From NCBI GenBank assembly GCA_001302245.1, contig LGYU01000015.1:96744-160743 (forward strand): a stretch of 64,000 nucleotides of DNA, written 5' to 3'. The stretch's first letter is position 1; each line of letters begins with the position of its first letter. Below are positions 16,324 to 49,183 of the stretch, one piece after another. This DNA comes from Chitinophagaceae bacterium PMP191F (GTDB lineage Bacteria > Bacteroidota > Bacteroidia > Chitinophagales > Chitinophagaceae). A program made the position numbers and the translations under genes. Under the pieces are notes generated by a model. That model was given only the letters and a program-made list of their open reading frames with translations, did no database searches and had not been told where the DNA came from.

Positions 16324-16405
16324 ATACCAGATAACAGTTGAACCTACAGGAAGTTTAAAGCAAATACTGTACAAGTTCGGTAAAAATGATAAAAAATAGG
16401 TGGTG

Positions 16406-18498: not shown

Positions 18499-18522
18499 GG
18501 GCAGGTAAATGTATAAGAATTT

Positions 18523-19467: not shown

Positions 19468-19475
19468 TGAATAGC

Positions 19476-20303
19476 TTAAAAGATATTTAGTAATAATCTT
19501 GTATATAACTTGGAAAGCCTGTAATAATTATAAAGGCGTTGCCGGAAGTTGAGATATGGATGCAGCAGCTTCCTGATCCGTATGCCGTGCAAAGTTAATT
19601 TTTTCCTGTTTGTCATCATGCTGGCATGTCCGAAACGGATGTATGTTTCTGTGCCCGGTTGGGGATCATAATAAAAAAAAGCATCGTTGAGTGCGCATCT
19701 GATCCAGTATTGCCAGTCTTCGTAACTCTTCATCGTTTCATCAAAAAAACCGGTTTTGTCAATCAGCGTTTTTCTGACCAGCGCATTGCTCACCTCCATA
19801 ATATTATCCACCATCAATTGCCGGGTAATGGTTTTACCCTGCCCGGTGATGCGTAAAGGGAAATGATTGGTGCTGTCAGCAGTGGTCTTTCTTTCGCGAT
19901 TGGCATATTGCTGGTTCAGATCGTCATTGAAAAAGAAGACTGAATTACCATATACCAGGTCAACGGTCGGTTTAAGCTGCAGAAGGGCCACCTGCAGCAG
20001 GATCTTTTTTGCATGAATAAGATCATCGCTGTCAAGGAACTGGATGAACTGACCTGATGATTGACGGATACCGTGATTCCTGGCAGCAGATAATCCCTGG
20101 TTGGACTGGTAAAAATAACGGAAACGTGCGTCCTTGTTCACAAAGCCGGCTGCCACAGCAGCGGTGTTGTCTGTAGAACCATCGTCGATGATCAGGCATT
20201 CCCATTGCTGATATTGCTGGGAAAAAATATTCTGCAGGGTTTCACCCAGGTAATGGGCATAGTTATAACAAGGAACAATTATGCTGACCAGCGGATTATC
20301 CAT
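19476..20303 (-). CDS. Glycosyltransferase family 2
   Basis: VSIIVPCYNYAHYLGETLQNI...CLIIDDGSTDNT followed by an FLDSDD-like DxD motif. Confidence 0.8.
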   Translation of the reverse strand: MDNPLVSIIVPCYNYAHYLGETLQNIFSQQYQQWECLIIDDGSTDNTAAVAAGFVNKDARFRYFYQSNQGLSAARNHGIRQSSGQFIQFLDSDDLIHAKKILLQVALLQLKPTVDLVYGNSVFFFNDDLNQQYANRERKTTADSTNHFPLRITGQGKTITRQLMVDNIMEVSNALVRKTLIDKTGFFDETMKSYEDWQYWIRCALNDAFFYYDPQPGTETYIRFGHASMMTNRKKLTLHGIRIRKLLHPYLNFRQRLYNYYRLSKLYTRLLLNIF

Positions 20304-20310
20304 ATAACAG

Positions 20311-21738
20311 TTACTGTGCGTTTGCAGGTTGTGTTTCGTTTGTTGCTGTACCTTTCTTCATATCGGTCAACATCAGCAATTCAAATAGAACAACCACAGA
20401 GAGGTATTCAAACAGGTAATCGAATAACAGAAAGCCTCCCAAAAGAAATAAAAGGTATTTGCCGTATGTAAGTTGCTTAAATCTTTTAAAAAAGAACCAT
20501 ACATAGGTAAAAATAAATAGCAGGAACCCTATAATGCCATATTCCCCAAAAAGCTGGTTGGCAAAGGAGTTGGGGAAATGCTTGATAGAATGGAAAGCTT
20601 TTGGCAGCAGATAGATCATTTTGAAGATCTGATAATGATCTTTTTCAAAGGCAGGGGAACGGTATTCCGGCACATAACGGAATAACCTTGACCCTTCTGT
20701 ATTGCCCAGTCCTGAAGTACGCAGCGCCAGGAATGATGAGTAACTGCCAACACCTGCGCCCAGTAAAAATGGTCCCGGACCGGAAAGCAGGTAGGCCCCG
20801 GTTTCTCTAAGGGATAGTACTTTTCCGTACCTGTCGCTGAGCGTGATCAATTCTGTTGAGTCACCATACCTAACCTCGTCATGAAAATGGGCGGCATTTT
20901 GCGATAAAATGGCTTTTTCATATTCAATCAATTCGTGTGTCTGGCTGGGTGTGGTATCGATTGAGTCTTTAAGATATCGCAGGTTGCTGGGGGAAACAAA
21001 CACGTAAAAGAGACCCAGCATCAGGAAACAGGCTATAATGGAGAACCGTATTTTTCTTTTACCTGAAAAAATGAAGCAGGCAACAAGCACCGGTATCAGA
21101 ATAATATTGGCAAAATTGCTGGTAGTAATGATGGCGATAGCGGCAGCCAGTAATGCGTAGATTATTTTCTCCCTGTACAGGAAAAAGAAAATAAAAAACG
21201 CATTCACCATCATGTTGATGTAACAGGGAGCCATAAACAATCCCTTAATGAAATCACCGGTAGATGCATTGAAACGTTCGTCGGTTACCGTGTACGGATT
21301 GATCGATCCGGATTGATACATGGTGAGCAGCAAGTTCAGCAATGATATACCGGCATTGATAAGAAAAAATACAGTAAGGGTTCTTGCAGTTTTTTCCTTA
21401 TCAATTGTATCAGTAATTGATCGGAGTTGATACAGGCATAAAAAACTGCAGATCCAGAAAGCGCATCCTATAGTAAAGGACGCAATATGTGCTTTGCTGA
21501 AATCGGTATTGAAAAAAACAAACTTCAGTAACTCAAATGCTACAATCAGCAGGTAGAACGTTGGTATGTTGCGTATTTTCTGTTTGAAACGAAAGTCGGG
21601 GTGCAATAGGTAGATAAGTACAATGCCTGCAGCTTTCAGTACTATTTTGTCAACAGTAAATACAAGCAGAAAGAGCAGCAGGGTAATGTGGATACTGTCC
21701 TTTATACTTTTTAATCTGTTTGTGGTGAGAAGGTTCAT
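20311..21738 (-). CDS. Polytopic membrane protein, possibly a second Wzy-like polymerase or O-antigen-ligase-like protein
   Basis: 475 aa. Many TM helices and a roughly 120-aa hydrophilic loop, which matches Wzy topology. No named motif was recognised. Confidence 0.45.
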   Translation of the reverse strand: MNLLTTNRLKSIKDSIHITLLLFLLVFTVDKIVLKAAGIVLIYLLHPDFRFKQKIRNIPTFYLLIVAFELLKFVFFNTDFSKAHIASFTIGCAFWICSFLCLYQLRSITDTIDKEKTARTLTVFFLINAGISLLNLLLTMYQSGSINPYTVTDERFNASTGDFIKGLFMAPCYINMMVNAFFIFFFLYREKIIYALLAAAIAIITTSNFANIILIPVLVACFIFSGKRKIRFSIIACFLMLGLFYVFVSPSNLRYLKDSIDTTPSQTHELIEYEKAILSQNAAHFHDEVRYGDSTELITLSDRYGKVLSLRETGAYLLSGPGPFLLGAGVGSYSSFLALRTSGLGNTEGSRLFRYVPEYRSPAFEKDHYQIFKMIYLLPKAFHSIKHFPNSFANQLFGEYGIIGFLLFIFTYVWFFFKRFKQLTYGKYLLFLLGGFLLFDYLFEYLSVVVLFELLMLTDMKKGTATNETQPANAQ

Positions 21739-21752
21739 CGTGATAAGGAATT

Positions 21753-22970
21753 TCAGGTTACATGGCGCATCGTTTTTATTACTTCATCATAATACAGTAT
21801 ATGATCCCTGACGGATGCAGTAATATTGAATTGTTGTTCAATGGTTCTTTTGCCGTTCTCTGCAATCTTTTTGCGTAACGTATCGTTTGTCAATAACAGG
21901 TGTATTGCATCAGCAATGCCCGGTATGTCATCGGGATCTATCAGTAGACCGTTTTCTTTATCAGTTACCAGTTCATGACCAGAGGAGCGTGATGTATTGA
22001 TAACCGCGCAGCCAACTGCCATAGCTTCAAGTGGTGCCAGCGCAAAGCATTCTGAATACGATGGAAACACTGCTGCTGTTGCTGCGGATAATTCACTGAA
22101 TAATATTTCCTGTGATACATGCCCTTTAAAATGCACAGAACTGCGGGCTGCAGGTGTCAGCAATACTTCCAATGCGGCCGTATCGCCTTTGCCATAAATA
22201 TCTAATGTGGCATCGGGATGGCTGGCATATACTTCATTCCAGGCTTTTAATAATGAAAAGATGCCTTTTTTGTATGTAAGCGTTCCGGTAAAAATGATCT
22301 TATTGTTGCTGCGGCTTACGCTCGGTTGCTCCGGCAGGTTGATGCAGTTGTATAATATTTTAATTGGGCGGTCAAGACCGAATAGAACGGCTGTTTTCTG
22401 CGCTGTGTACCTGCTTACAGAACACAAAGCGGTTGCTGTAGTCAGTAGTTTTTTTTCAGAATGATACACGTACTGTTTTACAGGTAAACCCAACTCTTGC
22501 CGGAAATATGAATGTGAGCCATTGAATTTTATCACCAGTGGCACTGACAAGCGGGGAAAGGAAATCGTTGCAAAACTGTTCTGAAAAAAAGTGTTCCAGT
22601 CCGGGCACTCTATAATATCAATCTGCTCTTTCTGTACCAGGTTGCTGATAAAGCGAAACATTTTCCCTACAGAATAAAGGGTGTCAAGCTGTAATAAAAG
22701 CGAATACTTCAGTAAACGGAATATTGTTTTGTCCTTAAAGGTGCCGGCATTGCTGTTAAACAGGCCTTTGTCGGTGACATACCGTAGCCGCCATACCTTT
22801 ACACCGTGATCTTCTTCGTAATCTTTCTGACCATATCCATGCGGGTATAATCCTGCTACGTATACACTATGTCCCTGGCGAACCAGTTCCCTGCCCAGCG
22901 TTTTGACCATTGTTCCGATACCACCATTCCTTCCCGGCGGGTATTCTTCACAAATGAACAATATCTTCAT
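21753..22970 (-). CDS. Glycosyltransferase family 4 (GT-B)
   Basis: N-terminus MKILFICEEYPPGRNGGIGTMV. C-terminal GT4 E-x7-E region (EGFGLAPLEAMA-like: ECFALAPLEAMAVGCAVI). Its ATG overlaps the TGA of the upstream flippase gene (ATGA). Confidence 0.8.
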   Translation of the reverse strand: MKILFICEEYPPGRNGGIGTMVKTLGRELVRQGHSVYVAGLYPHGYGQKDYEEDHGVKVWRLRYVTDKGLFNSNAGTFKDKTIFRLLKYSLLLQLDTLYSVGKMFRFISNLVQKEQIDIIECPDWNTFFQNSFATISFPRLSVPLVIKFNGSHSYFRQELGLPVKQYVYHSEKKLLTTATALCSVSRYTAQKTAVLFGLDRPIKILYNCINLPEQPSVSRSNNKIIFTGTLTYKKGIFSLLKAWNEVYASHPDATLDIYGKGDTAALEVLLTPAARSSVHFKGHVSQEILFSELSAATAAVFPSYSECFALAPLEAMAVGCAVINTSRSSGHELVTDKENGLLIDPDDIPGIADAIHLLLTNDTLRKKIAENGKRTIEQQFNITASVRDHILYYDEVIKTMRHVT

Positions 22971-24394
22971 CGTGATAAAAGCTTTTTTAATTGCGTAATG
23001 TCATCTTTCCTGATCAGCTTTACCATATACGCAGCACACAGATAAAGCAAAAGCCCTGCCGATGTTGATATAACTACATTAGTAAATATTTTTTTTGCAA
23101 TGAATACCGATATCGCAGAGATGATGATGCTGACAATGAGGGGTGTGAGCCGTACTTTTACCTGTTGTTGTTTTACAAAGTACTTATACAGAATAATCTG
23201 TAGCACTGTGCTTACAGAAAAAGCAATAGCAGCCCCGGTGGCGTACAGCAGGGGAATAAGAATAACGTTCAGCAATACATTGAACAGTGATACGGCTACT
23301 GTAATGTAAAAGGTAAGTCGCATCTGGCGCTGGGCAAATGCCATGGTCCAGAGGAAGTTGGTAAAATAGTGTAATGGCACTGAAACGGCCAGCAACAGGT
23401 AGACCAGTTCACTGGAGGTGCTGTATTTACCGGCTGTTAATACGTTCATCAGGGGAACCCATGTTATGCAGAAAAAGATCGGGATCAGCACTGAGAGAAA
23501 AGCCTCAATACGCAGCAGTAACCCCAGTTCAGCCGTTTTTTCCTGCGACAACTGTTCGTTGCTGAAATAGCGTACAAACTTGGGTAGTATTACCGGTGCC
23601 AGTATCAGCATAGGTAGCCTGGATATTTCAAATATCTTATATGCAAAGGAGTATTCGGCTGTTACAGATGCCCCCGCAACAATACCCAGTAAGATCCAGT
23701 CCACACGTGCAAGTGTTGAGTCAAATATCATTACACCCAATTGAGGCAGGGCTTCTTTTACCAGTGAAAAATATTTTTTTGTGTTGAAGTAGGGGACAAG
23801 CGTAATATCGAATTTTTTACGTGCCAGCAGTAATGAAACGGCTAATTCGCAAACAGCTGCAACGATAAAGATTTGTACCACCTTTTCAGTCTGGAAAACA
23901 CCCATCAGGATCAGTAACGATAACAAAACGCCTTTTACAAGGTTATTGCTGATCATCATAACGGCAAGATGTGTAAATGCTTCTTTACCATTGGCAAGTT
24001 GTTTAAACGGGCTTGATAGGAATGTTATCAGTACGCTGAGCCCAACGGAAGTAAGCAGGTAGTGCTTTAAGAAGAAACCGGGAAAAAAGTGGCGTGTGAT
24101 GAATAAGGCTGATACAAGTACAATACCTGCTGCCAGGTTGTGGAATATATGTAGTCCTGTAATCTGTTTAATGTTGTGACCCGATGCGATGCGTTTGAGT
24201 ACAATAAAATCAGTTCCCAGGCTGAAGATGGCAGTGATAACGGAAACAAAGGCAATGGTCCAGTTTAGTTCACCGTAATCTGTTTTACTTAGGAAGCGGG
24301 ATGTGAGATAGAAAACAACAAGGCCTAAAAATTGGTTTAGAACTATTTGTACCGTGCTGGCTGATAATGTTCTGAATAGGTTTCTCGAAGTCAT
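22967..24394 (-). CDS. Wzx-like oligosaccharide flippase (polysaccharide biosynthesis / MOP superfamily)
   Basis: 475 aa with 12-14 TM helices. The typical N-terminus is ...ASTVQIVLNQFLGLVVFYLTSRFLSKTDYGEL. Confidence 0.75.
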   Translation of the reverse strand: MTSRNLFRTLSASTVQIVLNQFLGLVVFYLTSRFLSKTDYGELNWTIAFVSVITAIFSLGTDFIVLKRIASGHNIKQITGLHIFHNLAAGIVLVSALFITRHFFPGFFLKHYLLTSVGLSVLITFLSSPFKQLANGKEAFTHLAVMMISNNLVKGVLLSLLILMGVFQTEKVVQIFIVAAVCELAVSLLLARKKFDITLVPYFNTKKYFSLVKEALPQLGVMIFDSTLARVDWILLGIVAGASVTAEYSFAYKIFEISRLPMLILAPVILPKFVRYFSNEQLSQEKTAELGLLLRIEAFLSVLIPIFFCITWVPLMNVLTAGKYSTSSELVYLLLAVSVPLHYFTNFLWTMAFAQRQMRLTFYITVAVSLFNVLLNVILIPLLYATGAAIAFSVSTVLQIILYKYFVKQQQVKVRLTPLIVSIIISAISVFIAKKIFTNVVISTSAGLLLYLCAAYMVKLIRKDDITQLKKLLSR

Positions 24395-24916
24395 GAAAAC
24401 TTTAAAAGGGCAAAAGAATGAATGGCTGTAATGTGCCTGTTGCCTGTTGTTTTGATTTTTGCAAAACTAACATAAGTGGTGTATCCGGTACAAAAGTTTT
24501 TATTTTTATTGGTACCATTACGAAGCTGCTATTAAAATACCATTAGGCAATTGCGCTGTAGACTCAGCAAGTAAAGAACTGTTAAATTATAAACAGGTAT
24601 ATATATCGTAACTTGCAGTATCTTGGTGCAGTAACTGCAATAACAAACGAAGAACAACGTACGGTGAGAGGCAATTTTAATTTTTTTTAGCCGTTTTTAG
24701 GCTCAAAAGTGTTAGCAGGTTGTTTTTGGTGCAACGTTTGTAATATCATGCTTGTCATAATGCTTACCGGTCAAAAACCGGTTTTAGGGAAAAATTACCA
24801 CTTCGTGGTATCAGCTTCCCGGGAATTTTAAATTTCTTTGCAACCAGGATTTTTACTGATTAGTTTAGTTGCAAGTAATTGAAGATGCGTGTTTTATAAG
24901 GCTTAACGAATAACCC
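24395..24916. promoter_or_regulatory. 520-bp AT-rich divergent control region between the wzx operon and the initiating sugar transferase
   Basis: No ORF of 60 aa or more. Contains the inverted repeat TTGCAGT-n14-ACTGCAA (24613-24640). Contains a direct repeat of TACCATTA (24553-24587). Contains the perfect palindrome aaaaccggtttt (24771-24782). Promoters for both divergent transcription units must lie here. Confidence 0.4.
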
Positions 24917-25675
24917 ATGATAGTAACTATTGCCAAAATCCAATCCTTTGAGCAAAGGCGTAATGCGGAGAAGGAACCTTTAAGAAGGTTTATTGATGAG
25001 CGTAAGAACTACTTTTTCTTCAAAAGGGTATTCGATCTTTCCGTTTCACTTCTTGTCACTGTTTTTATCTTAAGTTGGTTATTTCCCATTATAGCTATTC
25101 TGATCAAACTGGAATCCAGTGGCCCTGTATTCTTTGTACAACGTCGTGTGGGCCGGGGTGGACGAGCTTTTGCCTGCTTTAAGTTCAGAACTATGATTGT
25201 GAACAGTGAGGCCAATACGCGCCAGGCAAGGGAGAATGACGTGCGTATTACTAAGGTGGGTATGTTTTTACGCAAATCAAACCTGGATGAATTTCCTCAG
25301 TTTATAAATGTGTTATTAGGACACATGAGCATTGTAGGCCCACGTCCGCACATGCACGCAGATTGCAATAAGTTTTCCAAAACTGTAACCGGTTACAAAT
25401 TCAGGAACCTTGTAAAGCCGGGCATTACCGGTCTTGCACAGGTAAAGGGATACAGAGGTCCTACCAAGAATTTTGAAAGCATTTTCCACCGCTACCAGTT
25501 TGACGCTTTCTATGTACGCAATGCCAATTTCTGGCTGGATATGCGTATCATCCGGAAGACTGCTGCACAAACGATCAAGTCGCTTTTTCTCAAATTGTCT
25601 TCCCGCAAAAAACAGGAAGAACCCAGGATCGCTACACTCAAAGAGGCTTCCCAATCAGTTACCGTACTGAACTAG
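24917..25675 (+). CDS. Bacterial sugar transferase (polyprenyl-phosphate hexose-1-phosphate transferase, WbaP/WcaJ C-terminal-domain type)
   Basis: 252 aa with a single N-terminal TM helix. Signatures LDEFPQFINVLLGHMSIVGPRPH and GITGLAQV. Confidence 0.85.
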   Translation: MIVTIAKIQSFEQRRNAEKEPLRRFIDERKNYFFFKRVFDLSVSLLVTVFILSWLFPIIAILIKLESSGPVFFVQRRVGRGGRAFACFKFRTMIVNSEANTRQARENDVRITKVGMFLRKSNLDEFPQFINVLLGHMSIVGPRPHMHADCNKFSKTVTGYKFRNLVKPGITGLAQVKGYRGPTKNFESIFHRYQFDAFYVRNANFWLDMRIIRKTAAQTIKSLFLKLSSRKKQEEPRIATLKEASQSVTVLN

Positions 25676-31759: not shown

Positions 31760-33451
31760 ATGCAATTTATTGTAAAAACCATTGTCCGGCTGCTGATTTT
31801 ATTGTTACCCCTTACCACTGCTGCCCAGTCTACCTATTTGCCACAAGGCTTTAAACAACAACCCCTGCTTGACAGGTTGGAAATTATGTTGCAGAATAAT
31901 ACAGATCTGAACGTAAGTACAGCAAAACCGCTTAGCCGTAAAGTGGCTGTGCGTGTGGGTGAATATGCAGATTCACTGCAGCAGGCAGGTTCGCTTAACC
32001 TGTCGAAAGTTGACCAGTACAACCTGCAAAGCCTGCTGATGAATAATGATGAATGGGTGCAGGGCGATAAAAGTTCTTTTACCAGCAAAAGAAGTATCTG
32101 GAACACGTTCTATAAAACCAAAGCGAATTTTTTTGAGGTCAACGAGAAAGACTTTTACCTGGCTATTAACCCGGTAATTCAGCAACAACAATCTATTGAG
32201 ACCGGCAATAGCGGCCAGCGTATTTTTCTCAACTCCAAGGGTGCTACTTTTCGTGGGATGATCGCAAAAAAACTGGGATTTTCTTTTTATGCTACCGATA
32301 ACCAGGAGCGGGGACCTTTGTTTGTTCAACAACGTATACGCGAGTTTAATGCAGTACCGGGCGCCGGTTTTTATAAACCTTTTAAAACCACCGCTACCGA
32401 TTATTTTGATGCCAGAGGTTCTATCAACTTCACTGCTGTAAAGTATATAGATGTACAGTTTGGATATGATAAGAACTTTATTGGCAATGGTTACCGCAGT
32501 TTGTTCCTGAGCGATTATGGCAACAGCTACCTGTTTCTGAAACTCAATACCCGCATCTGGAAGCTGGACTACATGAACCTGTTTATGGAGCTTACCAACC
32601 AGTTTGCCAATAATAATGGAGATAACCTGCTGGATAAAAAATATGCAGCTATCCATCACCTGAGCTTACAGGCAACCCGCTGGCTGAATGTTGGTTTGTT
32701 TGAGTCCGTGGTATTTGGCCGTAAAAATCATTTCGATTTTGCTTATCTCAACCCCATTATCTTTTTGCGTGTGGCCGAGCAACAAAATGGCAGTGCGGAT
32801 AATGCCCTGGTGGGATTTGATTTTAAAGCCAATGTGGCTAAACGTTTACAGTTGTACGGACAGGTGTTGTTCGATGAGTTTAATCTGAAAGAGTTGAAAG
32901 CCGGCAAAGGCTGGTGGGCCAATAAATTCGGTATCCAGGGCGGGGCTAAATATATCAATGCCTTTGGTGTCAAAAATCTTGATCTGCAGGGTGAGATCAA
33001 CCTGGTACGTCCGTTTACGTATACACATACTGATTCTGTTTCTAATTATACGCATTATAACCAGCCACTGGCACATCCGCTGGGGGCAAATTTTATGGAA
33101 GCAATTGGTATTGTTCGTTATCAGCCGCATCCTAAATGGACCACCTCTGCCCGTTTGATCCTGTACAGGCAGGGTGCTGATACAGCTAATACCAATTATG
33201 GTTCCAATATTTTCAAACTCAACGGTACCCGTACGGGTGATTACGGATTCAGGTTGCCTGCAGGGCCACGTACTACCGCATTGAATACACAATTGCTGGT
33301 GTCTTACGAGTTGAAAGAAAACCTGTTTATTGATGCCTCTGCATTGATCCGTAGCTGGAAGGCTGCATTTGATCCGTCATTAAATACCAAAACAAACCTG
33401 TTCACCATTGCAGTACGCATGAATATGTTCAGGAGAGAATATGACTATTAG
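31760..33451 (+). CDS. Hypothetical secreted protein, probably an outer-membrane beta-barrel (possibly Wzi-like)
   Basis: Signal peptide LLILLLPLTTAAQS. 563 aa, rich in alternating aromatic/polar beta-strand patterns, with the C-terminal ...RMNMFRREYDY. The Wzi-like suggestion is a guess. Confidence 0.4.
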   Translation: MQFIVKTIVRLLILLLPLTTAAQSTYLPQGFKQQPLLDRLEIMLQNNTDLNVSTAKPLSRKVAVRVGEYADSLQQAGSLNLSKVDQYNLQSLLMNNDEWVQGDKSSFTSKRSIWNTFYKTKANFFEVNEKDFYLAINPVIQQQQSIETGNSGQRIFLNSKGATFRGMIAKKLGFSFYATDNQERGPLFVQQRIREFNAVPGAGFYKPFKTTATDYFDARGSINFTAVKYIDVQFGYDKNFIGNGYRSLFLSDYGNSYLFLKLNTRIWKLDYMNLFMELTNQFANNNGDNLLDKKYAAIHHLSLQATRWLNVGLFESVVFGRKNHFDFAYLNPIIFLRVAEQQNGSADNALVGFDFKANVAKRLQLYGQVLFDEFNLKELKAGKGWWANKFGIQGGAKYINAFGVKNLDLQGEINLVRPFTYTHTDSVSNYTHYNQPLAHPLGANFMEAIGIVRYQPHPKWTTSARLILYRQGADTANTNYGSNIFKLNGTRTGDYGFRLPAGPRTTALNTQLLVSYELKENLFIDASALIRSWKAAFDPSLNTKTNLFTIAVRMNMFRREYDY

Positions 33452-34313: not shown

Positions 34314-35066
34314 CTAACCGATTCTTTTTCTTCCGCAATAGATTGTACATATTCCTAGACTCAAGCGTTTTAGCGTGGTTTCTTTAAACCCGACTTGTTG
34401 TAAAATGTGTAGAAATGTTTCGCCTTCAGGAAATGCTTTTACTGATTTGTTTAAATATTGATATGCTTCTTTGTTCTTTGATACCAGTTGCCCTGCACCC
34501 GGTGCAATCACTTTCATGTACACGTTGTACAATCCTTTGAACCACACCTTGCGGGGTTGCGAAAATTCCAGGATCATTACCTTACCACCGGGTTTTAATA
34601 CCCTGAACATTTCACTCAATCCTTTTTCCAGGTTCTCAAAATTGCGCACTCCAAAGGCAACAGTAATCGCATCAAACGTATTGTCCGCAAAATTTATTGC
34701 CTCACTATCCCCACTCTGTAGTTCTATATGATTATTTAACAATAGTTTATCGATCTTCTGACGACCTATTTCCAGCATCTTTTCTGAAATATCTATGCCA
34801 ATTATACTGTTGGGTTGCAGGTATTTATAGGTGGTAATGGCCAGATCGGCAGTGCCGGTTGCCACATCCAGCACCAGTTGGGGCTTTATTTCCTGCAACT
34901 CGCGTATGGCCCTTCTTCGCCAGTAAATGTCAATTCCGCCTGAAAGGAAACGGTTTAAAAAATCGTACCTGAATGCGATCTGGTCAAACATATTGGCCAC
35001 CTGCTGCTTCTTGCTCTGCTCCGACTCTCCGAAGGGTACTATCGTATCGTGTGAATATTTTGACAT
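34314..35066 (-). CDS. ubiE: Demethylmenaquinone / ubiquinone-biosynthesis C-methyltransferase
   Basis: FDQIAFRYDFLNRFLSGGIDIYWRRRA. SAM motif I VLDVATGTADLAI. Post-I and motif II are present. Confidence 0.85.
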   Translation of the reverse strand: MSKYSHDTIVPFGESEQSKKQQVANMFDQIAFRYDFLNRFLSGGIDIYWRRRAIRELQEIKPQLVLDVATGTADLAITTYKYLQPNSIIGIDISEKMLEIGRQKIDKLLLNNHIELQSGDSEAINFADNTFDAITVAFGVRNFENLEKGLSEMFRVLKPGGKVMILEFSQPRKVWFKGLYNVYMKVIAPGAGQLVSKNKEAYQYLNKSVKAFPEGETFLHILQQVGFKETTLKRLSLGICTIYCGRKRIG

Positions 35067-39942: not shown

Positions 39943-40728
39943 TCAGAACACCTCTTTCATCTCCACATCCGGCAAAGTCTTATCAATGCGGCGGGACAGT
40001 TCGGGCAGCTTGCTGGTAGGTACTTGGGGAAACAGATGGTGTTCGAGGTGGTAAAACATCTGGTAGGTGAAGAAGTTTTTCCACCGGCTGCGTTGCGTGC
40101 GGGCAAAGACCTCTTCATCACAGTCATGGTGTACGGTCCATACGGCAAAAAAACTGGTCATACATTCACCAATGAGCATTGCGATGAGATGATACTGTAG
40201 AAAACGGATATGGAATGTGCACACTATTGTGATAAATACAGCTACAGCCAGCAATTCCGTAATTACATTTCTTATTACTGTGCTGTTGCCGGATCTTAAT
40301 GCAGTGACATGCAATTGTACAATAAATACAGGTCCGTACAAGATGGCTTTCCATGCAGGCATGCGCGCGCATCTGCCTTCTATATCTTCATCGTTCAGAC
40401 AGTGTTTGTGATGACGCAGGTGATTGTACTTAACTGCATGCATGGATGCCAGCATTAGCATGCTATTGAGAAAAAGAACACACCAGGTTAAACCCCGGCT
40501 GATGCCCAGCGTATAATGAAATCCATTGTGCACCTGTCGCAATGCAGTAAGAAAGAACATAAAGGAACATGGAACAGCAAACCAGTACAATTCATACCAG
40601 GCCAGTATCCAGGATGCAGTGATCCAGGGAGCACTCACTGCATTTTCAACAAAGACATCTTTGGGTGAAAGACGCGTAAGGTCTTGCCAGCGGATATCTT
40701 TTAACCGCGGATCATGCAGAATATTCAT
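39943..40728 (-). CDS. Membrane fatty-acid desaturase / hydroxylase-family di-iron enzyme (possibly CrtW/sphingolipid-desaturase-like)
   Basis: Histidine boxes HLRHHKH and HHLFPQVP. Four TM segments. Confidence 0.6.
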   Translation of the reverse strand: MNILHDPRLKDIRWQDLTRLSPKDVFVENAVSAPWITASWILAWYELYWFAVPCSFMFFLTALRQVHNGFHYTLGISRGLTWCVLFLNSMLMLASMHAVKYNHLRHHKHCLNDEDIEGRCARMPAWKAILYGPVFIVQLHVTALRSGNSTVIRNVITELLAVAVFITIVCTFHIRFLQYHLIAMLIGECMTSFFAVWTVHHDCDEEVFARTQRSRWKNFFTYQMFYHLEHHLFPQVPTSKLPELSRRIDKTLPDVEMKEVF

Positions 40729-42359: not shown

Positions 42360-42866
42360 TTATTTGAAAAATCTCATCAGGCTGCTGATAAACCAGTTCT
42401 CGTCAGCTTTTACCATTACATCCAGCATTTTATCTGCCTGCTGACCGAAACGTTTAATGCCATTGATAGTTTCTGTAAACTGTTTTACATCTTTGTCTTT
42501 TTTATCGCCTTCTACATCTTCCAACTGGCCCATCAGTTTCATCATAGGATCCAGTTCGCGTTTTTTTCTTTCCTTAATGATCTGTGTGGCTACTTTCCAG
42601 ATATCTTTTTCGGCAGTAAAATATTCTTTTCTTTCACCGGGAATCAATACTCTTTCTACCAGCCCCCAGTCAATCAATTCACGGATATTCATGTTTACAT
42701 TACCACGGCTGATCTTTAGTTCTTCCATCACTTCATCCTGGCTCAACGGGTCTGCGCTTACCATCAGTAATGCATGTATCTGTGCCATAGTGCGATTAAT
42801 ACCCCAGTAGGTTCCGAATACTCCCCACGAATTAATGAACTGTGCCTTTGCTTCTGCCAATTTCAT
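42360..42866 (-). CDS. GbsR/MarR-family winged-helix transcriptional regulator
   Basis: NSWGVFGTYWGINRTMAQIHALLMVS...LSQDEVMEELKISRGNVNMNIRELIDWGLVERV matches the GbsR-type HTH. Confidence 0.7.
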   Translation of the reverse strand: MKLAEAKAQFINSWGVFGTYWGINRTMAQIHALLMVSADPLSQDEVMEELKISRGNVNMNIRELIDWGLVERVLIPGERKEYFTAEKDIWKVATQIIKERKKRELDPMMKLMGQLEDVEGDKKDKDVKQFTETINGIKRFGQQADKMLDVMVKADENWFISSLMRFFK

Positions 42867-42973: not shown

Positions 42974-44113
42974 TCAATAAGGAGCTCCGTGTGTCTGGCG
43001 GATAAGCCATGAAACAAATTTCGGGAAAGGTTTCACTGTTGAGATCAGAAAACCCGATAAAGCATTGTTGCCAAAAAAGCGTTGTATGATCCTGCCGGCC
43101 TGTAAGCGACGCCCGAATTTACGTTCCCATTGCTGGGTGTATTGCAGTTCCATTTCATAGCGGCTGATATTACCCAGCAGGAATGATTGTATCTCTTCAA
43201 AAGCCAGTTTGCTGGCGTGTAATGCCATACTCATACCATTGCCACACAATGGGGTGATCATACCGGCAGCATCGCCCAGCATCAGCACATGGTTCTCCAC
43301 CTGTGTTTTGGAATTGAAAGAAATGCGTGAAATGGTAAGTGGCTCTTCGTACAGGAATGCTGCTTTTGTAAATATCTCTTTCAGAAAAGGATTTTTCATC
43401 AGGATATTTTGCTCCATCTGTGCAATATCATTGTGATTGTTACGCAGGTTGGCGGCGGTAGTGAGATAGCAAAGGCAATATTTATCGTCTTCGATCCGGG
43501 AGATACCACAGTAACCATTGTCGAAGTTGTGCAATGCGATCAGGTCTGACGGAAGGTCAATTTTTACATGATATTTTACAGCTACATAATGATTGAGCTT
43601 GCTGGGTTTTACCTGTGTAAACTGTCGTTTCCATTTGGCATCCAGGTTACTGCGTTTGCCATAAGTACCGGCTACTACGCTGGCGGCTGTTTCTCCCTGG
43701 CTGGTAAACAGAGTAAATGCGCCATTGCTATAGATTACGTTGTTTACCTTGGTATTTTCCTGTACAGCTACACCTTCTTTGCGTGCAATGTCTGCCAGCA
43801 TATTATCAATGGTATACCGGCTGATGCCAATACCACCCAGCGGTAATGTACTTTCCAGTGCTTTTCCATCTGGTGAGCTGACCAGAATGCGGCTGATCAC
43901 CGGCAATTGCATATCGCTTAACGGAATGCCCAACTCCTGTAGAAAGTTCCAGTTTTCGAGGCTGATGTATTCGCCACATACCTTGTGAAAGGGATACTGC
44001 TCTTTTTCAAAGAGCACGGTACGGTATCCTGCACGCGCACACTGGATGGATAACGCCAGCCCGGCAAGCCCGCCACCAACAATCGCCACATCATATTTAG
44101 ATTCTGTGATCAA
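42974..44113 (-). CDS. FAD-dependent oxidoreductase (geranylgeranyl-reductase / UbiH-like flavoprotein)
   Basis: GxGxxG Rossmann motif YDVAIVGGGLAGLALS. The block VCGEYIS is typical of the geranylgeranyl-reductase family. 379 aa. Confidence 0.75.
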   Translation of the reverse strand: MITESKYDVAIVGGGLAGLALSIQCARAGYRTVLFEKEQYPFHKVCGEYISLENWNFLQELGIPLSDMQLPVISRILVSSPDGKALESTLPLGGIGISRYTIDNMLADIARKEGVAVQENTKVNNVIYSNGAFTLFTSQGETAASVVAGTYGKRSNLDAKWKRQFTQVKPSKLNHYVAVKYHVKIDLPSDLIALHNFDNGYCGISRIEDDKYCLCYLTTAANLRNNHNDIAQMEQNILMKNPFLKEIFTKAAFLYEEPLTISRISFNSKTQVENHVLMLGDAAGMITPLCGNGMSMALHASKLAFEEIQSFLLGNISRYEMELQYTQQWERKFGRRLQAGRIIQRFFGNNALSGFLISTVKPFPKFVSWLIRQTHGAPY

Positions 44114-44218
44114 GGTACATGAATAATTATAATGGTGTTAGCTGCCTTTAACAGCATACATGGATAAAGGTTTGTGAGTATGTTGTAACAAAATACAATG
44201 CAGATATTTAATACACTG

Positions 44219-44917
44219 TTAAATTGAAGTTACTGTGATCAGCCAGCGGAACGCCCATTTCCAGTGGAGCGAAAAGTTAGCGATTCCTGCTGTATGTAAC
44301 AATTCCTGCCATTCTTTTTTTGAGAATCCACGTGCTACTGATAACGGAGCATCGTTTTTTACCAGGTAGCTTTTTGAAAACAATGCAGTCAGGTATTTTA
44401 TAGAATAATAGGCCAGTGTGTGCCGGTGCAGATCGTTTATGAAAAAACCAATGCGTGCATGCGCCTGCATCCAGCGCAATTGCTCAGTCAATACATTTTC
44501 TGTAAAATGGTGACAGAAAAGTGACGAGAAAATAATATCCGGCTGTTGCTCAAACTGAACATTTCTGTAATCGGAAGTAACGATCGTGGATTTTTCGCGG
44601 GGAAGACGTTGTATGGCTACGCCTGTGCAAAAAGGATTGCTGTCAATTCCGGTTACTGTAGCCTGTATATTGTTTTTGCTGCACCATTTTAAAATGGCCT
44701 GAAGATTATCTCCACCACCGCACCCGATCTCACAGATACTGACGGTGGTTTTTCCGGAAGCAGATAACAGTGCTTTAAATCCTGTTAACGTAATGGCATG
44801 ACCACCTAGCCATGTATTGATAAAATCCAGTTCCTGCATATTACGACGGATATCTTCCTGCGGAATATCATCGCGGTCAAGTAATTCAGACTGATATGAA
44901 CGATGTGTAAGATCCAT
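44219..44917 (-). CDS. Class I SAM-dependent methyltransferase
   Basis: Motif I ICEIGCGGGDNL, post-I, and motif II regions. 232 aa. Confidence 0.7.
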   Translation of the reverse strand: MDLTHRSYQSELLDRDDIPQEDIRRNMQELDFINTWLGGHAITLTGFKALLSASGKTTVSICEIGCGGGDNLQAILKWCSKNNIQATVTGIDSNPFCTGVAIQRLPREKSTIVTSDYRNVQFEQQPDIIFSSLFCHHFTENVLTEQLRWMQAHARIGFFINDLHRHTLAYYSIKYLTALFSKSYLVKNDAPLSVARGFSKKEWQELLHTAGIANFSLHWKWAFRWLITVTSI

Positions 44918-44935
44918 GTATGCAAAAAAGGTCTT

Positions 44936-46039
44936 TTACAGACCGGATGCCGAAGCTACAAATGTTTCCATGGTCAATCCTGGTCCGAATGCCGCGCCAA
45001 AGATCGTTTCTTTTGCAGCGTTTTGTTTGCCGATGGATTGCATGATCTTTTTCAAAACAAACAGGATAGTGGGTGAAGACATATTGCCATACTCAGCTAA
45101 TACATCGTAACTGGCATTCAGTTCGTCATTTTGCAGATGCAGGCTTTTTTGAATGGCTTCCAGTATTTTTTTTCCGCCGGGATGCATGCACCAGCGGGTT
45201 ACTTGCTGGGTTGTAATACCTGCTTTGGCAAAAGCGCTGGCCGCCAGTTTATCAAAATCTTCTTCGATCAGGTCGGGCACATAACCACTCAGCGTCATTA
45301 AGAAACCGGAAGAAGAAAGTTCCCATGCCATATCCTGTTTGCCTTTGGAAACCACCTCGGAATAAAAACTATCAATATGTAAACCCCTGGCGGCATGATT
45401 GTCTGAGGAAACCACTACTGCTGCACTGCCATCTGAGAACAGCAGGCTTGATGCAATATTGTCAATAGTGCCTTCGCGTTGAAAATGCAAGGTGCACAGT
45501 TCAGTACAAACGATCAATACATTGGCACAGGGCTCGCTTTTGCAAATGGCATCTGCAATTTGCAGTGCGTGGATAGCTGCATAGCATCCCATAAAGTTTA
45601 CTGATGTACGAAAGGTGTTGCGGGGTAAGTCCAGCAGTTCCATCAATTGTAGTTCCAGGCCGGGTGCACTCATTCCTGTACAGCTTACTGTAATGAGGTG
45701 CGTGATCTCTTCTTTTTTGAGCTTTCCATCCAGGCAATCCCTGATGGCGTTTAGGGACAATGGCGCGGCATATTTGTGATACCAGGCCATCCGCTGTTCC
45801 AGTGAAGGGAACGGCTCGATATTTTCGGTATGTGGGTAGAATTTCCATTCCGGCAACGGGCGACTGTAATCGGGAATAACAGAATAGCGGGTCTGGATAC
45901 CGCTGTGGTGATACAAAAAACGTAGTTTACGTTTCTCTGCCTCATCAAATGTATACACCTGTTGCATGAACTGCAGAATATCTTCCTGCCTGTGTTTAAA
46001 AGCTGCTACTGCTGTACCTATCGAAATAATTTTACTCAA
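44936..46039 (-). CDS. Type III polyketide synthase (chalcone/stilbene-synthase superfamily; alkylresorcinol/alkylpyrone-synthase-like)
   Basis: Catalytic triad in its canonical contexts: Cys in VNFMGCYAAIHAL, His in CMHPGGKKILEAI, Asn in GNMSSPTILFVL. C-terminal GFGPG-like FGPGLT. Confidence 0.85.
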   Translation of the reverse strand: MSKIISIGTAVAAFKHRQEDILQFMQQVYTFDEAEKRKLRFLYHHSGIQTRYSVIPDYSRPLPEWKFYPHTENIEPFPSLEQRMAWYHKYAAPLSLNAIRDCLDGKLKKEEITHLITVSCTGMSAPGLELQLMELLDLPRNTFRTSVNFMGCYAAIHALQIADAICKSEPCANVLIVCTELCTLHFQREGTIDNIASSLLFSDGSAAVVVSSDNHAARGLHIDSFYSEVVSKGKQDMAWELSSSGFLMTLSGYVPDLIEEDFDKLAASAFAKAGITTQQVTRWCMHPGGKKILEAIQKSLHLQNDELNASYDVLAEYGNMSSPTILFVLKKIMQSIGKQNAAKETIFGAAFGPGLTMETFVASASGL

Positions 46040-46042
46040 ACG

Positions 46043-46996
46043 CTACCTCCGGATTAACAAGATCAGAAATGCTACATTGGTGCAAACAGATGCCAGTATG
46101 TTCATTCGCATGGTATTAGCAAAACTGGCGGCAGTTTCCTGTTTCCATACTTTGGCAAACCATATAAAAAAATATACGACAACAGGCAGCATAACAGTTG
46201 CCAGGATCACAAAATTTATTTGTGCATGCCGGCTGCTGAACCAGTAAAAAAGGCTACCCATTGCCAGTACATACATGATGCCGGTTAAAAAAAATGTGCC
46301 ACGATAGCCTAGTACAGAACTGATTGTACGCACACCATCCTTACGATCGGCCTCGTGCTGGTAGATCTGGGTAAGTGGATAAAAACCACCGATCAACAGC
46401 GAAGAGGCTACCATTCCTGAAATGGGTACATCGGTAGTAAGGTTTACACTACTGCCGTGATATACCAGGAAAAACGTAACGGCACCCTGGAAGATCACTA
46501 CTGTCAGGTAACCTGTTACCGGGTATTGTTTCAGGCGTATGTCCCGGTAACTGTAAGCCCGTGATGCAAGGATATAGGCAACAATACCGGTTGTAAAAAC
46601 AATACTGACCAGGGTGCCCAGTAAAATAGCAACAATATCCATTGCCACACTGGTATAAAACAATTGTCTGGTAGGCTGCATAGGATTCCGGATGCCGCCA
46701 ATACTGCCCTCATCTCTATCCATGTACGAATTGTATCCATTGCTGGAGGGATATACCAGCAGGTGTAGTATAATAAATACCAGCAATGCCCGTACAGTAT
46801 GAATGTGTGGTACCTGGCTCAGTGCAAACAGGTACACTGGCATCAGGAAAAATGAAAAATGAAAACGAAGTAATTGTATAGTTGAACGTTGTAACACTGG
46901 TTTAAGGTAAGAAAAAAATGTGTTGCATCGCCGGGATATAAAAAAAGCGGCGCTGTTGTAACAGCCGCCGCTTAGAGTATTGTAAAAAAGTAACAA
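46043..46996 (-). CDS. UbiA-family integral-membrane aromatic prenyltransferase
   Basis: 8-9 TM helices. Asp-rich motif NGYNSYMDRDEG in the first cytoplasmic loop, with a second Asp-containing loop (YQHEADRKDG). The N-terminus may be over-extended; the ORF abuts the flotillin stop. Confidence 0.65.
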   Translation of the reverse strand: MLLFYNTLSGGCYNSAAFFISRRCNTFFSYLKPVLQRSTIQLLRFHFSFFLMPVYLFALSQVPHIHTVRALLVFIILHLLVYPSSNGYNSYMDRDEGSIGGIRNPMQPTRQLFYTSVAMDIVAILLGTLVSIVFTTGIVAYILASRAYSYRDIRLKQYPVTGYLTVVIFQGAVTFFLVYHGSSVNLTTDVPISGMVASSLLIGGFYPLTQIYQHEADRKDGVRTISSVLGYRGTFFLTGIMYVLAMGSLFYWFSSRHAQINFVILATVMLPVVVYFFIWFAKVWKQETAASFANTMRMNILASVCTNVAFLILLIRR

Positions 46997-48562
46997 TTAC
47001 TTGATCAGCTCAATTTCGTTTCCGTTTTGATTATCATCTTTTTTGTTGCCCAGGTAATTGGGAAGATCCATGCCTGCCATATCGAAAATGTCTTTCAGCG
47101 GTGGTACAGCTTTGTATAATCCTGAAACAAAATTGGCTGTAGCGTTTTTGCCATCGCCGTTTGTTCCATTTTCCCAAACAGTAATCTTATCGATCTTGAT
47201 ATTTTTGATAGCCTCTGTCTGCATTTTTACCAGTTCAGGCAGTTTATCTGAAACCAGTAACAGTACCGCATCTTTGGGATTGTTGCCGGCAGCCTTTACG
47301 ATTTTATCAAGACCTTCGGCCTGTTTGGTCAGTATTTCAAACATACCTCTTGCTTCAGCTTCCAGTTTGGCAAAAATAGCGTCTGCCTCGCCTTTGGCTT
47401 TTTCACGAATCCTTTCAGCTTCGGCCTGTGCTTCGATAATGGCTTTTTGCTTTTGTATCTCAGCAGATACCACTACGTTGGCTTTTTGTGATGCTCTTTC
47501 TCTTTCGGCCCTGGCAGCTTCTGCTTTCTGTTCGGCTAAATAGGCCTCTTCCAGTGCTTTTGCAGTTTGTACTTTTTCGGCAGCTGTTGCCCTTTTGGTA
47601 GCTTCTGCTTCTTTTTCGCGGCGTTCTGCTTCTGAGTTGGCAATCTGTATGCGTGCAAGGTTTTCACCCTGGATGGCAATAGAGTTGGCTTCGGCAGATT
47701 TGATACGGGTATCTCTGTCTGCTTCCACTTTACCGATCTGTTCGTCGCGTTTGGCGGCTGCGATCAGGATCTCTCTGTCTTTTGTAGCCAATGCGATCTG
47801 TGTATCGCGGTCACGTTGTGTTTCCGCAATCTTTACATCGCGCTCTTTCTGTGTCTGCTGCATGCTGGTATCACGTTCTCTTTCAGCAATAGCTTTACCG
47901 ATCTCACCAACTTTATCCTGTTCTGCCACACTTTTCTTGGCCTCGTTCAATGCTTTTGCAGCGGCTTCTTTACCCAGTGCCTCAATATAACCGCTTTCAT
48001 CTTTAATATCCGTTACGTTCACGTTGATCATTTTCAGACCTATCTTGTTCAGTTCTGCTTCAACGTTGGCGGCAATATTGGCCAGGAACTTATCGCGGTT
48101 GCTATTGATCTCTTCAATATCCATCATCGCTACTACCAAACGCATTTGTCCCAGGATGATGTCCCTTGACAGTTCGTGGATCTGGGCCTGCTGCAATCCC
48201 AGCAAACGTTCAGCGGCATTTTGCATTACACCGGGTTCTGTTGAAATGCCCACCGTAAAACGTGAAGGCACATCAACGCGGATATTTTGTTTACTCAGCG
48301 CATTGGTAAGATTTACCTCAATGGAAATGGGTGTTAAGTCCAGGAATGAATAATCCTGTATAATGGGCCAGATGAAAGCAGCACCGCCATGTATGCATTT
48401 GGCGGCCAGATTGCCATCTGAACCATCTTTTGATTTACCAACTTTTCCGTACACTACCAGGATGCGGTCACTGGGACAACGCTTGTAGCGCCGGAACATG
48501 GAAACAATAAGAATAAAAATAAACAATACCGAAGCGGCAATTGCTATCAGAATAAAATCCAT
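46997..48562 (-). CDS. Flotillin (SPFH/band-7 family, FloT-like)
   Basis: N-terminal TM helix, an SPFH domain, then a long Ala/Glu/Lys/Arg-rich coiled-coil (EAQAEAERIREKAKGEADAIFAKLEAEARG). 521 aa. Confidence 0.85.
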   Translation of the reverse strand: MDFILIAIAASVLFIFILIVSMFRRYKRCPSDRILVVYGKVGKSKDGSDGNLAAKCIHGGAAFIWPIIQDYSFLDLTPISIEVNLTNALSKQNIRVDVPSRFTVGISTEPGVMQNAAERLLGLQQAQIHELSRDIILGQMRLVVAMMDIEEINSNRDKFLANIAANVEAELNKIGLKMINVNVTDIKDESGYIEALGKEAAAKALNEAKKSVAEQDKVGEIGKAIAERERDTSMQQTQKERDVKIAETQRDRDTQIALATKDREILIAAAKRDEQIGKVEADRDTRIKSAEANSIAIQGENLARIQIANSEAERREKEAEATKRATAAEKVQTAKALEEAYLAEQKAEAARAERERASQKANVVVSAEIQKQKAIIEAQAEAERIREKAKGEADAIFAKLEAEARGMFEILTKQAEGLDKIVKAAGNNPKDAVLLLVSDKLPELVKMQTEAIKNIKIDKITVWENGTNGDGKNATANFVSGLYKAVPPLKDIFDMAGMDLPNYLGNKKDDNQNGNEIELIK

Positions 48563-48601
48563 AACAGGAGGGGTTTTAGCTATTCTTTTAAGAAGGGATT
48601 T

Positions 48602-49183
48602 TTATACTTTGCTCACCAGCAGAATACGATCGTCTACAACATCAATCACCTTAATGATCCTTCCGGTGGCAATGTCGTTTTCATCATCGGTCATGGCAGG
48701 CAATTCTTTTAATGCACCCTGAACCTTAACATGTACTTTGCCAAGTCCGTTGCGTTTTGCAGGAATGATAAGATAGGTATTGCCTATTTTATCTATGGCA
48801 TTGTTCAGTTCCAGGGTGCCGCTGTGTTTTAAGCGACCAACATTCCTGAATAAAAATGCCATGATCAGTATCATCAGTGAGCCGCCGGCAAAGGCAATGC
48901 CTATTGTAAAGATTTTACTCATGCCCACATTATAGCTGGCTATGCCAATCCATCCGAAAATGGTAAAGAAAGCAATGAGATTTTTAACGGTAAAAAACTG
49001 GTAACCGATACCACCGTCGTGATCTATTGCATGATCGGCGTCACCATCTGCACCGGCATCTGTATCTGCAAAAGAAAAAACGGTTTGTAAAAGGAATAAT
49101 AGTGAGAACAAAATGGCAATGATCCAGAATATCTTGTGAAACAACTCCATCGATTGCCACCAGGAAGAAACGTTCAATAACAT
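48602..49183 (-). CDS. NfeD-like membrane protein (flotillin-associated, YuaF/YqeZ type)
   Basis: Three or four TM helices followed by a C-terminal soluble beta-rich (OB-like) tail. Sits immediately upstream of flotillin, the canonical nfeD-floT arrangement. Confidence 0.55.
   Translation of the reverse strand: MLLNVSSWWQSMELFHKIFWIIAILFSLLFLLQTVFSFADTDAGADGDADHAIDHDGGIGYQFFTVKNLIAFFTIFGWIGIASYNVGMSKIFTIGIAFAGGSLMILIMAFLFRNVGRLKHSGTLELNNAIDKIGNTYLIIPAKRNGLGKVHVKVQGALKELPAMTDDENDIATGRIIKVIDVVDDRILLVSKV

Follow-up and report, generated by a model that had tools for sequence, protein, structure and literature searches.

The agqABCD genes of Actinoplanes missouriensis are reported to encode a type III polyketide synthase (PKS), an oxygenase, a methyltransferase, and AgqD, a UbiA-like membrane prenyltransferase that O-prenylates the polyketide, and to lead to alkyl-O-dihydrogeranyl-methoxyhydroquinones (Awakawa et al. 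2011, ChemBioChem 12:439, PMID 21264995). Similar combinations of a UbiA enzyme and a type III PKS are predicted in Micromonospora, Jiangella, and one Raphidiopsis cluster resembling the hierridin genes; the predicted Micromonospora locus holds a UbiA, a methyltransferase, a type III PKS and, between the latter two, a flavoenzyme of the acyl-CoA dehydrogenase type. The hierridin genes hidABC of Cyanobium and their planctomycetal counterpart are trios of a methyltransferase, a flavin adenine dinucleotide (FAD)-dependent oxidoreductase, and a PKS of type III, and the PKS of Gimesia maris makes C15–C17 alkylresorcinols in Corynebacterium (PMC10896814). Mycobacterial type III PKS quinones are reported to be methylated alkyl-benzoquinones that act as alternative electron carriers (Anand et al. 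2015). Literature searches returned neither a characterised Bacteroidota version of the four-gene cassette considered here nor a link between a type III PKS and its product in the Bacteroidota. This cassette lies in a 64,000-nucleotide (nt) stretch (the window) of Chitinophagaceae bacterium PMP191F (assembly GCA_001302245.1, contig LGYU01000015.1, positions 96,744–160,743) and probably represents an operon for a prenylated, methylated phenolic membrane lipid, in which a hid-type module of PKS, methyltransferase, and flavoprotein is joined by a dedicated UbiA prenyltransferase. In function, the cassette would parallel the agqABCD pathway.

That the four genes belong together, as had been claimed in the original prediction made from the DNA, is borne out by their conservation across genomes. 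When UbiA signature peptides were searched against a set holding a single genome for each species, at least 596 genomes matched, and gene order was counted in the best 80 of these, nearly all labelled as Chitinophagaceae or close Bacteroidota, plus three metagenomic loci (83 related loci). Following the UbiA gene, the PKS is present in 81, the methyltransferase in 77, and the flavoprotein in 75 of the loci; the full order of UbiA, PKS, methyltransferase, and flavoprotein is kept in 75, and all eight exceptions are contig ends. A distant Bacteroidota metagenome-assembled genome (MAG; locus L092) keeps all four genes in this order, with a UbiA only 38% identical to that of the window. In Dyadobacter sp. 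32 (locus L084, 8001–9959), UbiA and PKS are fused in one protein of 652 amino acids (aa; WP_149244224.1); the genes for the methyltransferase and the flavoprotein come after it, and the cluster holding this fusion comprises six sequences. Three further lineages have the PKS, with or without the methyltransferase, divergent from UbiA. Given the gene fusion and an adjacency conserved in four different arrangements, UbiA and PKS are functionally linked. The gene arrangement is not due to chance: the genes form one functional unit that is conserved across soil Bacteroidota, and the cassette is a lineage-wide trait of the Chitinophagaceae, not a strain-specific island. The GC content across the cassette shows no anomaly. 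Homologues sharing ≥66% identity number in the thousands for the PKS and likewise for the flavoprotein, the named ones being from Chitinophagaceae.

Within the window, the cassette consists of four consecutive, co-directional minus-strand open reading frames (ORFs) between 42974 and 46996, and all four ORFs were recovered with the domains originally assigned to them. The features of the locus, in order of transcription, are as follows.

46940–46973, minus strand: intrinsic terminator of the flotillin/NfeD unit, formed by the hairpin AAGCGGCGGCUGUUACAACAGCGCCGCUU and a U7 tract; bounds the cassette on the 5' side
46043–46897, minus strand: UbiA-family integral membrane prenyltransferase, 284 aa (PF01040; GTG start, corrected)
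44936–46039, minus strand: type III PKS, 367 aa (PF00195 and PF02797; Cys152/His286/Asn319)
44219–44917, minus strand: class-I S-adenosylmethionine methyltransferase, 232 aa (Methyltransf_25/11; EIGCGGGD at residue 63)
42974–44113, minus strand: FAD-dependent oxidoreductase, 379 aa, proposed ring hydroxylase (FAD_binding_3)
42360–42866, minus strand: MarR/GbsR-like transcription factor, candidate regulator, on the same strand and 107 nt downstream of the cassette

The intergenic gaps within the cassette are 3, 18, and 105 nt. UbiA has at least six strong hydrophobic segments, while the PKS, the methyltransferase, and the flavoprotein have none. The profiles PF01040, PF00195, and PF02797 all score above their Pfam gathering cut-offs (60.4 bits against 34.2 for UbiA, and 88.8 and 97.8 bits for the PKS, with a cut-off of 27 each).

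The outer limits originally given for the four genes needed one correction, at the start of UbiA. The mechanical ORF begins at TTG 46996, abutting the stop codon of the upstream flotillin, and its first 99 nt contain the intrinsic terminator (hairpin 46973–46945 and U7), which begins 24 nt past the flotillin stop and has a minimum free energy of −18.5 kcal/mol (z = −3.5 against shuffles). Homologues of UbiA are 284–290 aa in length with N-termini that match the position of GTG 46897. As the terminator falls inside the longer ORF and the homologues agree in length and N-terminus, the start at 46996 is an artefact; the UbiA gene spans 46043–46897, and the flotillin/NfeD genes are a separate transcription unit. 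The cassette would thus be transcribed apart from the upstream flotillin genes. These encode, directly upstream (46997–49183, minus strand), a FloT-like flotillin of 521 aa (SPFH/Band 7) and a 193-aa membrane protein resembling NfeD, for which Pfam gave no match. Membership of the flotillin/NfeD pair in the cassette was ruled out by the terminator, by the UbiA start 99 nt downstream, and by the occurrence of the flotillin upstream of the cassette in only 3 of the 83 loci, all from the closest genera (Longitalea and Niastella).

The PKS retains the Cys-His-Asn triad that had been read from the sequence: Cys152 (in MGCYAA), His286 (HPGG), and Asn319 (GNMSS) fall on the catalytic positions of PDB 7cb3, 2h84, and 4b0n when aligned, and none of the three varies among nine diverse homologues. 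The enzyme is approximately 30% identical to the G. maris alkylresorcinol synthase (E = 3e-30), the same level as to plant chalcone synthases and to the enzymes in the PDB. The closest PDB entries by score are 7cb3, Steely1, Ectocarpus PKS1, and PKS18; 7cb3 is annotated merely as a chalcone/stilbene-synthase-like protein, and a literature search for this structure found no description of it.

The UbiA clade is compact: a search of 1.84 billion representatives yielded 767 clusters (at 50% identity) with E ≤ 1e-3, of which 227 reached E ≤ 1e-30, and plasmids in PLSDB held no member of it. An alignment of 28 members, the most distant at 33% identity, has 26 invariant positions, including N56, D60, D62, R121, K123, Q137, Y173, Q177, Y179, Q180, H181, and D184.

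The methyltransferase has a class-I Rossmann fold (PF13649/PF08241), with a best NCBIfam match to PRK06202 (126 bits) below the cut-off of 243. The flavoprotein carries the motifs GGGLAG at 13, KVCGEYIS at 44, GYCGIS at 200, and GDAAG at 280. Its AlphaFold (AF2) model (pLDDT 80.5) is equally close in fold (E 1e-18 to 1e-21) to phenol and pyrrole halogenases, the Thermoplasma geranylgeranyl reductase (GGR) TaGGR, 3-hydroxybenzoate 6-hydroxylase, and PqsL. Both proteins have counterparts in G. maris, for which the gene sequences were taken from the supplement of PMC10896814 as optical character recognition (OCR) text with frameshifts. The methyltransferase family profile matches mtr in two colinear segments (27 and 30.5 bits); a direct tblastn of the window methyltransferase against the same OCR-frameshifted target gave no match. 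The flavoprotein family profile matches fdo in four colinear segments (13.7, 30.5, 7.5, and 9.5 bits), including those with KVCG and GYxG.

Further trios that lack UbiA came to light on two alphaproteobacterial plasmids when plasmid sequences were searched by tblastn with the flavoprotein. A Mesorhizobium plasmid encodes a type III PKS, a class-I methyltransferase, and an FAD monooxygenase in the same order as in the window (PKS 36%, E 4e-71; methyltransferase 22%, E 7e-11; FAD enzyme 24%, E 4e-23), and its flavoprotein keeps the motif as KVCGEFIS. A Novosphingobium plasmid has a methyltransferase gene and genes for an acyl carrier protein (ACP), a ketosynthase, a type III PKS, and an FAD enzyme, with identities to the window of 37% for the methyltransferase (E 5e-37), 36% for the PKS, and 27% for the FAD enzyme. 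Neither plasmid locus has a UbiA. On the basis of these comparisons, the trio of PKS, methyltransferase, and flavoprotein appears to be an older module that exists without UbiA.

The trios bear directly on the role of the flavoprotein. Homologues encoded in clusters without a prenyltransferase keep Cys46-Gly47-Glu48 and G200-Y201-x-G203 without exception, and since the family accompanies type III PKS genes regardless of prenylation, its action is expected to be on the ring; by analogy with what is required for the hierridins and the srs and agq products, the reaction is most likely ring hydroxylation. A role as a halogenase was considered in view of fold matches to ChlB4, Mpy16, PltA, and Bmp2 (Foldseek) and rejected, as the WxWxIP motif is missing; the segment taken to correspond to it, at a position assigned by eye, reads GYCGIS (200–205). 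On the Hymenobacter swuensis plasmid pHsw1 (locus L088, 2123–7137), a paralogue with 46% identity to the flavoprotein has as neighbours an isonitrile synthase and a TauD/TfdA dioxygenase, at a locus with neither a PKS nor a UbiA, indicating that the family has been recruited to other aromatic pathways.

Collectively, the proposed pathway would begin with the PKS priming with a fatty-acyl thioester from the cell and condensing malonyl-CoA to yield a 5-alkylresorcinol (or an alkylpyrone). The class-I methyltransferase would then methylate the ring, at oxygen or carbon, and the flavoprotein would hydroxylate it to a hydroxyquinol or hydroquinone, as suggested by the co-occurrence of its family with type III PKSs where no prenyltransferase is present. 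Finally, the polytopic UbiA would, at the membrane, attach a prenyl chain either to the ring itself or to one of its oxygens.

Several observations weigh against this pathway. The product is a prediction from the genes, and with an identity of only about 30% between the PKS and any characterised enzyme, alkylresorcinol synthase included, the starter and the mode of cyclisation are presumptive. Some lineages have only the PKS and UbiA nearby, and the methyltransferase and flavoprotein are therefore not obligatory partners. The flavoprotein has a GGR-like Cys-Gly-Glu in a fold equidistant from reductases, halogenases, and hydroxylases, and co-expression of fdo in the G. maris study gave no assignable product (PMC10896814). 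The UbiA clade lacks the canonical pair of Asp motifs (NxxxDxxxD and DxxxD). The first motif is N56xxxD60xD62, in which the canonical third Asp is missing and the +8 position is G, S, or E, and in the second, Y179-Q180-H181xxD184, QHxxD replaces DxxxD (as mapped on ApUbiA, PDB 4od4); canonical prenyl-diphosphate chemistry is assumed for the clade. Given that the remaining motif residues are invariant in the 28 diverse members, the active site appears to be conserved in an altered form.

A rival explanation differs in the kind of product. The lipid might be a redox-active prenylated polyketide benzoquinone or quinol, formed independently of chorismate and serving beside menaquinone as an electron carrier (e.g., to cytochrome bd) or as an antioxidant. 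The strongest association is in spirochaetes, where members of the UbiA clade that share all 26 invariant residues occur directly upstream of cydA, cydB, and a rubrerythrin gene on three independent contigs, and one fragment (P0476) has UbiA and Cyt_bd_oxida_I Pfam matches in a single ORF; from gene context, this suggests that the clade may supply the quinol for cytochrome bd in these organisms. A NuoL-like gene adjoins the cluster at one locus (L086), and in Dyadobacter there is an NDH-2 gene in its vicinity. That nearly all Chitinophagaceae carry the cassette is in keeping with a physiological lipid. The mycobacterial type III PKS quinones, reported to act as electron carriers (Anand et al. 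2015), offer a precedent. The link to cydAB is, however, guilt by association at 37–40% identity in another phylum with no PKS nearby on the spirochaetal contigs, and where only a PKS and a UbiA are present, as in some lineages, the enzymes for turning a resorcinol into a para-quinone are lacking. Chitinophagaceae use menaquinone-7 (MK-7), and a normal MenG/UbiE gene is present in the window. AgqD, the only characterised analogue, is reported to O-prenylate its substrate (Awakawa et al. 2011), a modification that blocks quinone formation. On balance, a quinone product is unlikely, though the option of a quinone-like redox lipid raised in the original prediction has gained some circumstantial support. 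Its broadest form, in which Bacteroidota and some spirochaetes would make an unrecognised class of isoprenoid quinones with a type III PKS head group and the altered UbiA clade as prenyltransferase, feeding cytochrome bd-type oxidases or guarding membranes under oxygen stress, is quite unlikely.

The remaining alternatives concern single enzymes. The flavoprotein could be a GGR-like reductase of the prenyl chain, with ring hydroxylation absent or performed by another enzyme. The original prediction had read VCGEYIS as a geranylgeranyl-reductase signature implying possible prenyl saturation, and the best NCBIfam match is to the superfamily model TIGR02032 (GG-red-SF), TaGGR (3oz2) ranks with the best fold matches, Cys46-Gly-Glu presumably resembles the conserved Cys loop of GGRs, some pipelines label homologues ‘menaquinone-9 beta-reductase’, and agq products are reported to bear a dihydrogeranyl group (Awakawa et al. 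2011). The inference from the motif did not hold: the TIGR02032 match falls short of the threshold for the family (101.8 bits; cut-off 158.8), the segment expected to read YxWxFP in GGRs (position assigned by eye) is GYCGIS, and the family is not tied to prenylated substrates. As the motif is also found in flavoproteins beside type III PKSs without a prenyltransferase (Mesorhizobium, Novosphingobium, and G. maris), and the family recurs with it beside the isonitrile synthase in Hymenobacter, VCGE is no sign of prenyl saturation, and a prenyl reductase is rather unlikely. Alternatively, the PKS could build a small, non-lipid aromatic head from short starters, with the tail consisting wholly of a long polyprenyl chain attached by UbiA in the manner of MenA/UbiA. 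Compatible with this are the equidistance of the PKS (~30%) from all characterised type III PKSs, a best NCBIfam match to the malonyl-only enzyme DpgA, albeit far below its cut-off (151.8 against 425 bits), and the lack of an acyl-activating enzyme or ACP in the cassette. The methyltransferase and flavoprotein are, however, homologous to the partners of PKSs that make C15–C17 alkylresorcinols, and the JGI annotation of one PKS homologue is alkylresorcinol/alkylpyrone synthase. The closest PDB relatives of the PKS include enzymes that take acyl starters, and THNS falls outside the best 60. A short-starter product is accordingly improbable. It is extremely improbable that the UbiA gene is a housekeeping MenA or UbiA that lies near the PKS by coincidence. 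JGI pipeline labels on homologues (‘1,4-dihydroxy-2-naphthoate octaprenyltransferase’ and ‘4-hydroxybenzoate polyprenyltransferase’) would favour this, but they disagree among themselves, and none of the NCBIfam MenA, UbiA, and MqnP models matches the window UbiA at E ≤ 1e-3, the best match being PRK12884 (34.8 bits; cut-off 269). Orthology to MenA or UbiA, which would have separated the gene from the cassette, can thus be set aside, as the translational UbiA-PKS fusion and the four arrangements of UbiA-PKS adjacency across families also argue. The favoured interpretation is a pathway to a prenylated, methylated, and hydroxylated membrane lipid of the alkylresorcinol type.

The spirochaetal genes noted above form apparent operons of UbiA, cydA, cydB, and rubrerythrin/rubredoxin (L093, 6001–9733; L094, 10001–13861; and the P0160 contig), and their sources include a Treponema sp. 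MAG, with Treponema, Treponemataceae, and Rectinemataceae as named relatives. The menaquinone gene of the window encodes a UbiE/MenG-type demethylmenaquinone methyltransferase (PF01209, 213 bits; 34314–35066, minus strand) approximately 8 kb downstream of the cassette, where it overlaps an outer-membrane beta-barrel gene; it probably belongs to housekeeping menaquinone biosynthesis.

Downstream of the cassette, the neighbouring genes vary, with MarR in 18, CoA_binding_2 in 33, a TIGR01777 epimerase in 12, and a 125-aa membrane protein in 3 of the 83 loci, and the fatty-acid-desaturase-like gene in none. With this variable co-occurrence, all five were rejected as members of the cluster. The MarR-like protein (MarR_2, 39.9 bits; CudC-like, 53.9 bits, below the cut-off) is often separated from the cassette by other genes where it does occur, and is possibly a weak candidate for a regulator of the cassette. 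The desaturase-like gene (39943–40728, minus strand) encodes a fatty-acid-desaturase-family membrane protein of 261 aa with His boxes and a size like that of CrtW and desaturases, and sits within the block of MarR, small membrane protein, TIGR01777, and CoA_binding_2 genes; some relatives have a DCC1-like gene in this place. Several relatives (L001, 15235–16698; L002, 5477–6928) have a conserved protein of ~485 aa without a Pfam match between the flavoprotein gene and MarR, and in several the methyltransferase and flavoprotein genes are split by three opposite-strand genes, including a beta-carbonic anhydrase, insertions that the window lacks. A Chitinophagaceae-type cassette was also found in a MAG filed as ‘Synechococcus sp. 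UW140’ (L022, CALRUG020000001.1), with UbiA 64% and PKS 61% identical to the window; this contig is probably mis-binned.

Elsewhere in the window, a polysaccharide (O-antigen or extracellular polysaccharide) cluster at 14533–25675 encodes an ABC exporter, a Wzy_C ligase/polymerase, a WecG/TagA transferase, two GT2 and one GT4 glycosyltransferases, a Polysacc_synt flippase, an unannotated 475-aa protein, and a divergent Bac_transf initiating transferase. Two long ORFs have no Pfam match at E ≤ 1e-5 (31760–33451, plus strand, 563 aa; 20311–21738, minus strand, 475 aa). Rfam and tRNA scans of the window returned no match, and a sigma-70 promoter scan, which is uninformative for Bacteroidota, found fewer sites than in shuffles.

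Type III PKS regions are routinely flagged in Bacteroidota genomes, and here such a region resolves into a fixed four-gene unit in hundreds of Chitinophagaceae species and other Bacteroidota, with a prenyltransferase from a small UbiA clade of distinctive character; one genus has this enzyme fused to the PKS, and in spirochaetes the clade shares operons with cytochrome bd. Should the product be a phenolic ether like that of agq, the result is a useful, incremental annotation of a very common lipid pathway of soil bacteria; if it is a redox-active quinone, bacterial respiration would gain a further class of quinones, made by a route not previously recognised.

Compared with known systems, the prenyltransferase shares the superfamily and fold family (PF01040) of the housekeeping MenA and UbiA enzymes, which have NxxxDxxxD and DxxxD where this clade has NxxxDxD and QHxxD; the Asn and two Asp of the first motif of ApUbiA align with the clade in a weak profile match (E = 5.5e-4). 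The mycobacterial polyketide quinone cluster, which likewise relies on a type III PKS, serves as the model for a redox lipid and is not known to include a UbiA enzyme. The likeness to srsABC of Streptomyces griseus proposed in the original prediction applies to the common logic of a type III PKS followed by methylation and hydroxylation to give membrane phenolic lipids and quinones. The srs genes lack a prenyltransferase and are not the closest comparator: SrsB is an isoprenylcysteine-carboxyl-type methyltransferase (PMC6669644) and hence not a homologue of the class-I Rossmann enzyme of the window, whereas the hid-type operon has all three proteins homologous and adjacent, as established through the planctomycetal homologue rather than HidABC itself. 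A variant with the order hidC, hidA, hidB is also known. Hid-type operons, save for the one predicted Raphidiopsis case, lack a prenyltransferase, and the G. maris PKS is ~30% identical to that of the window. For the whole cassette, agqABCD is the system reported to hold all four functional classes in one cluster; in the window they are contiguous. It belongs to a different phylum, with the PKS first and the prenyltransferase last in the reported order, as opposed to the prenyltransferase first here, and, judging from the annotation of the Micromonospora locus, its oxygenase is probably of a different family than the Rossmann-type flavoprotein. The extension by UbiA that had been predicted is real, in that the UbiA gene comes first in the cassette, but with agqABCD as precedent the design is already known in kind; it is the UbiA clade that is unusual.

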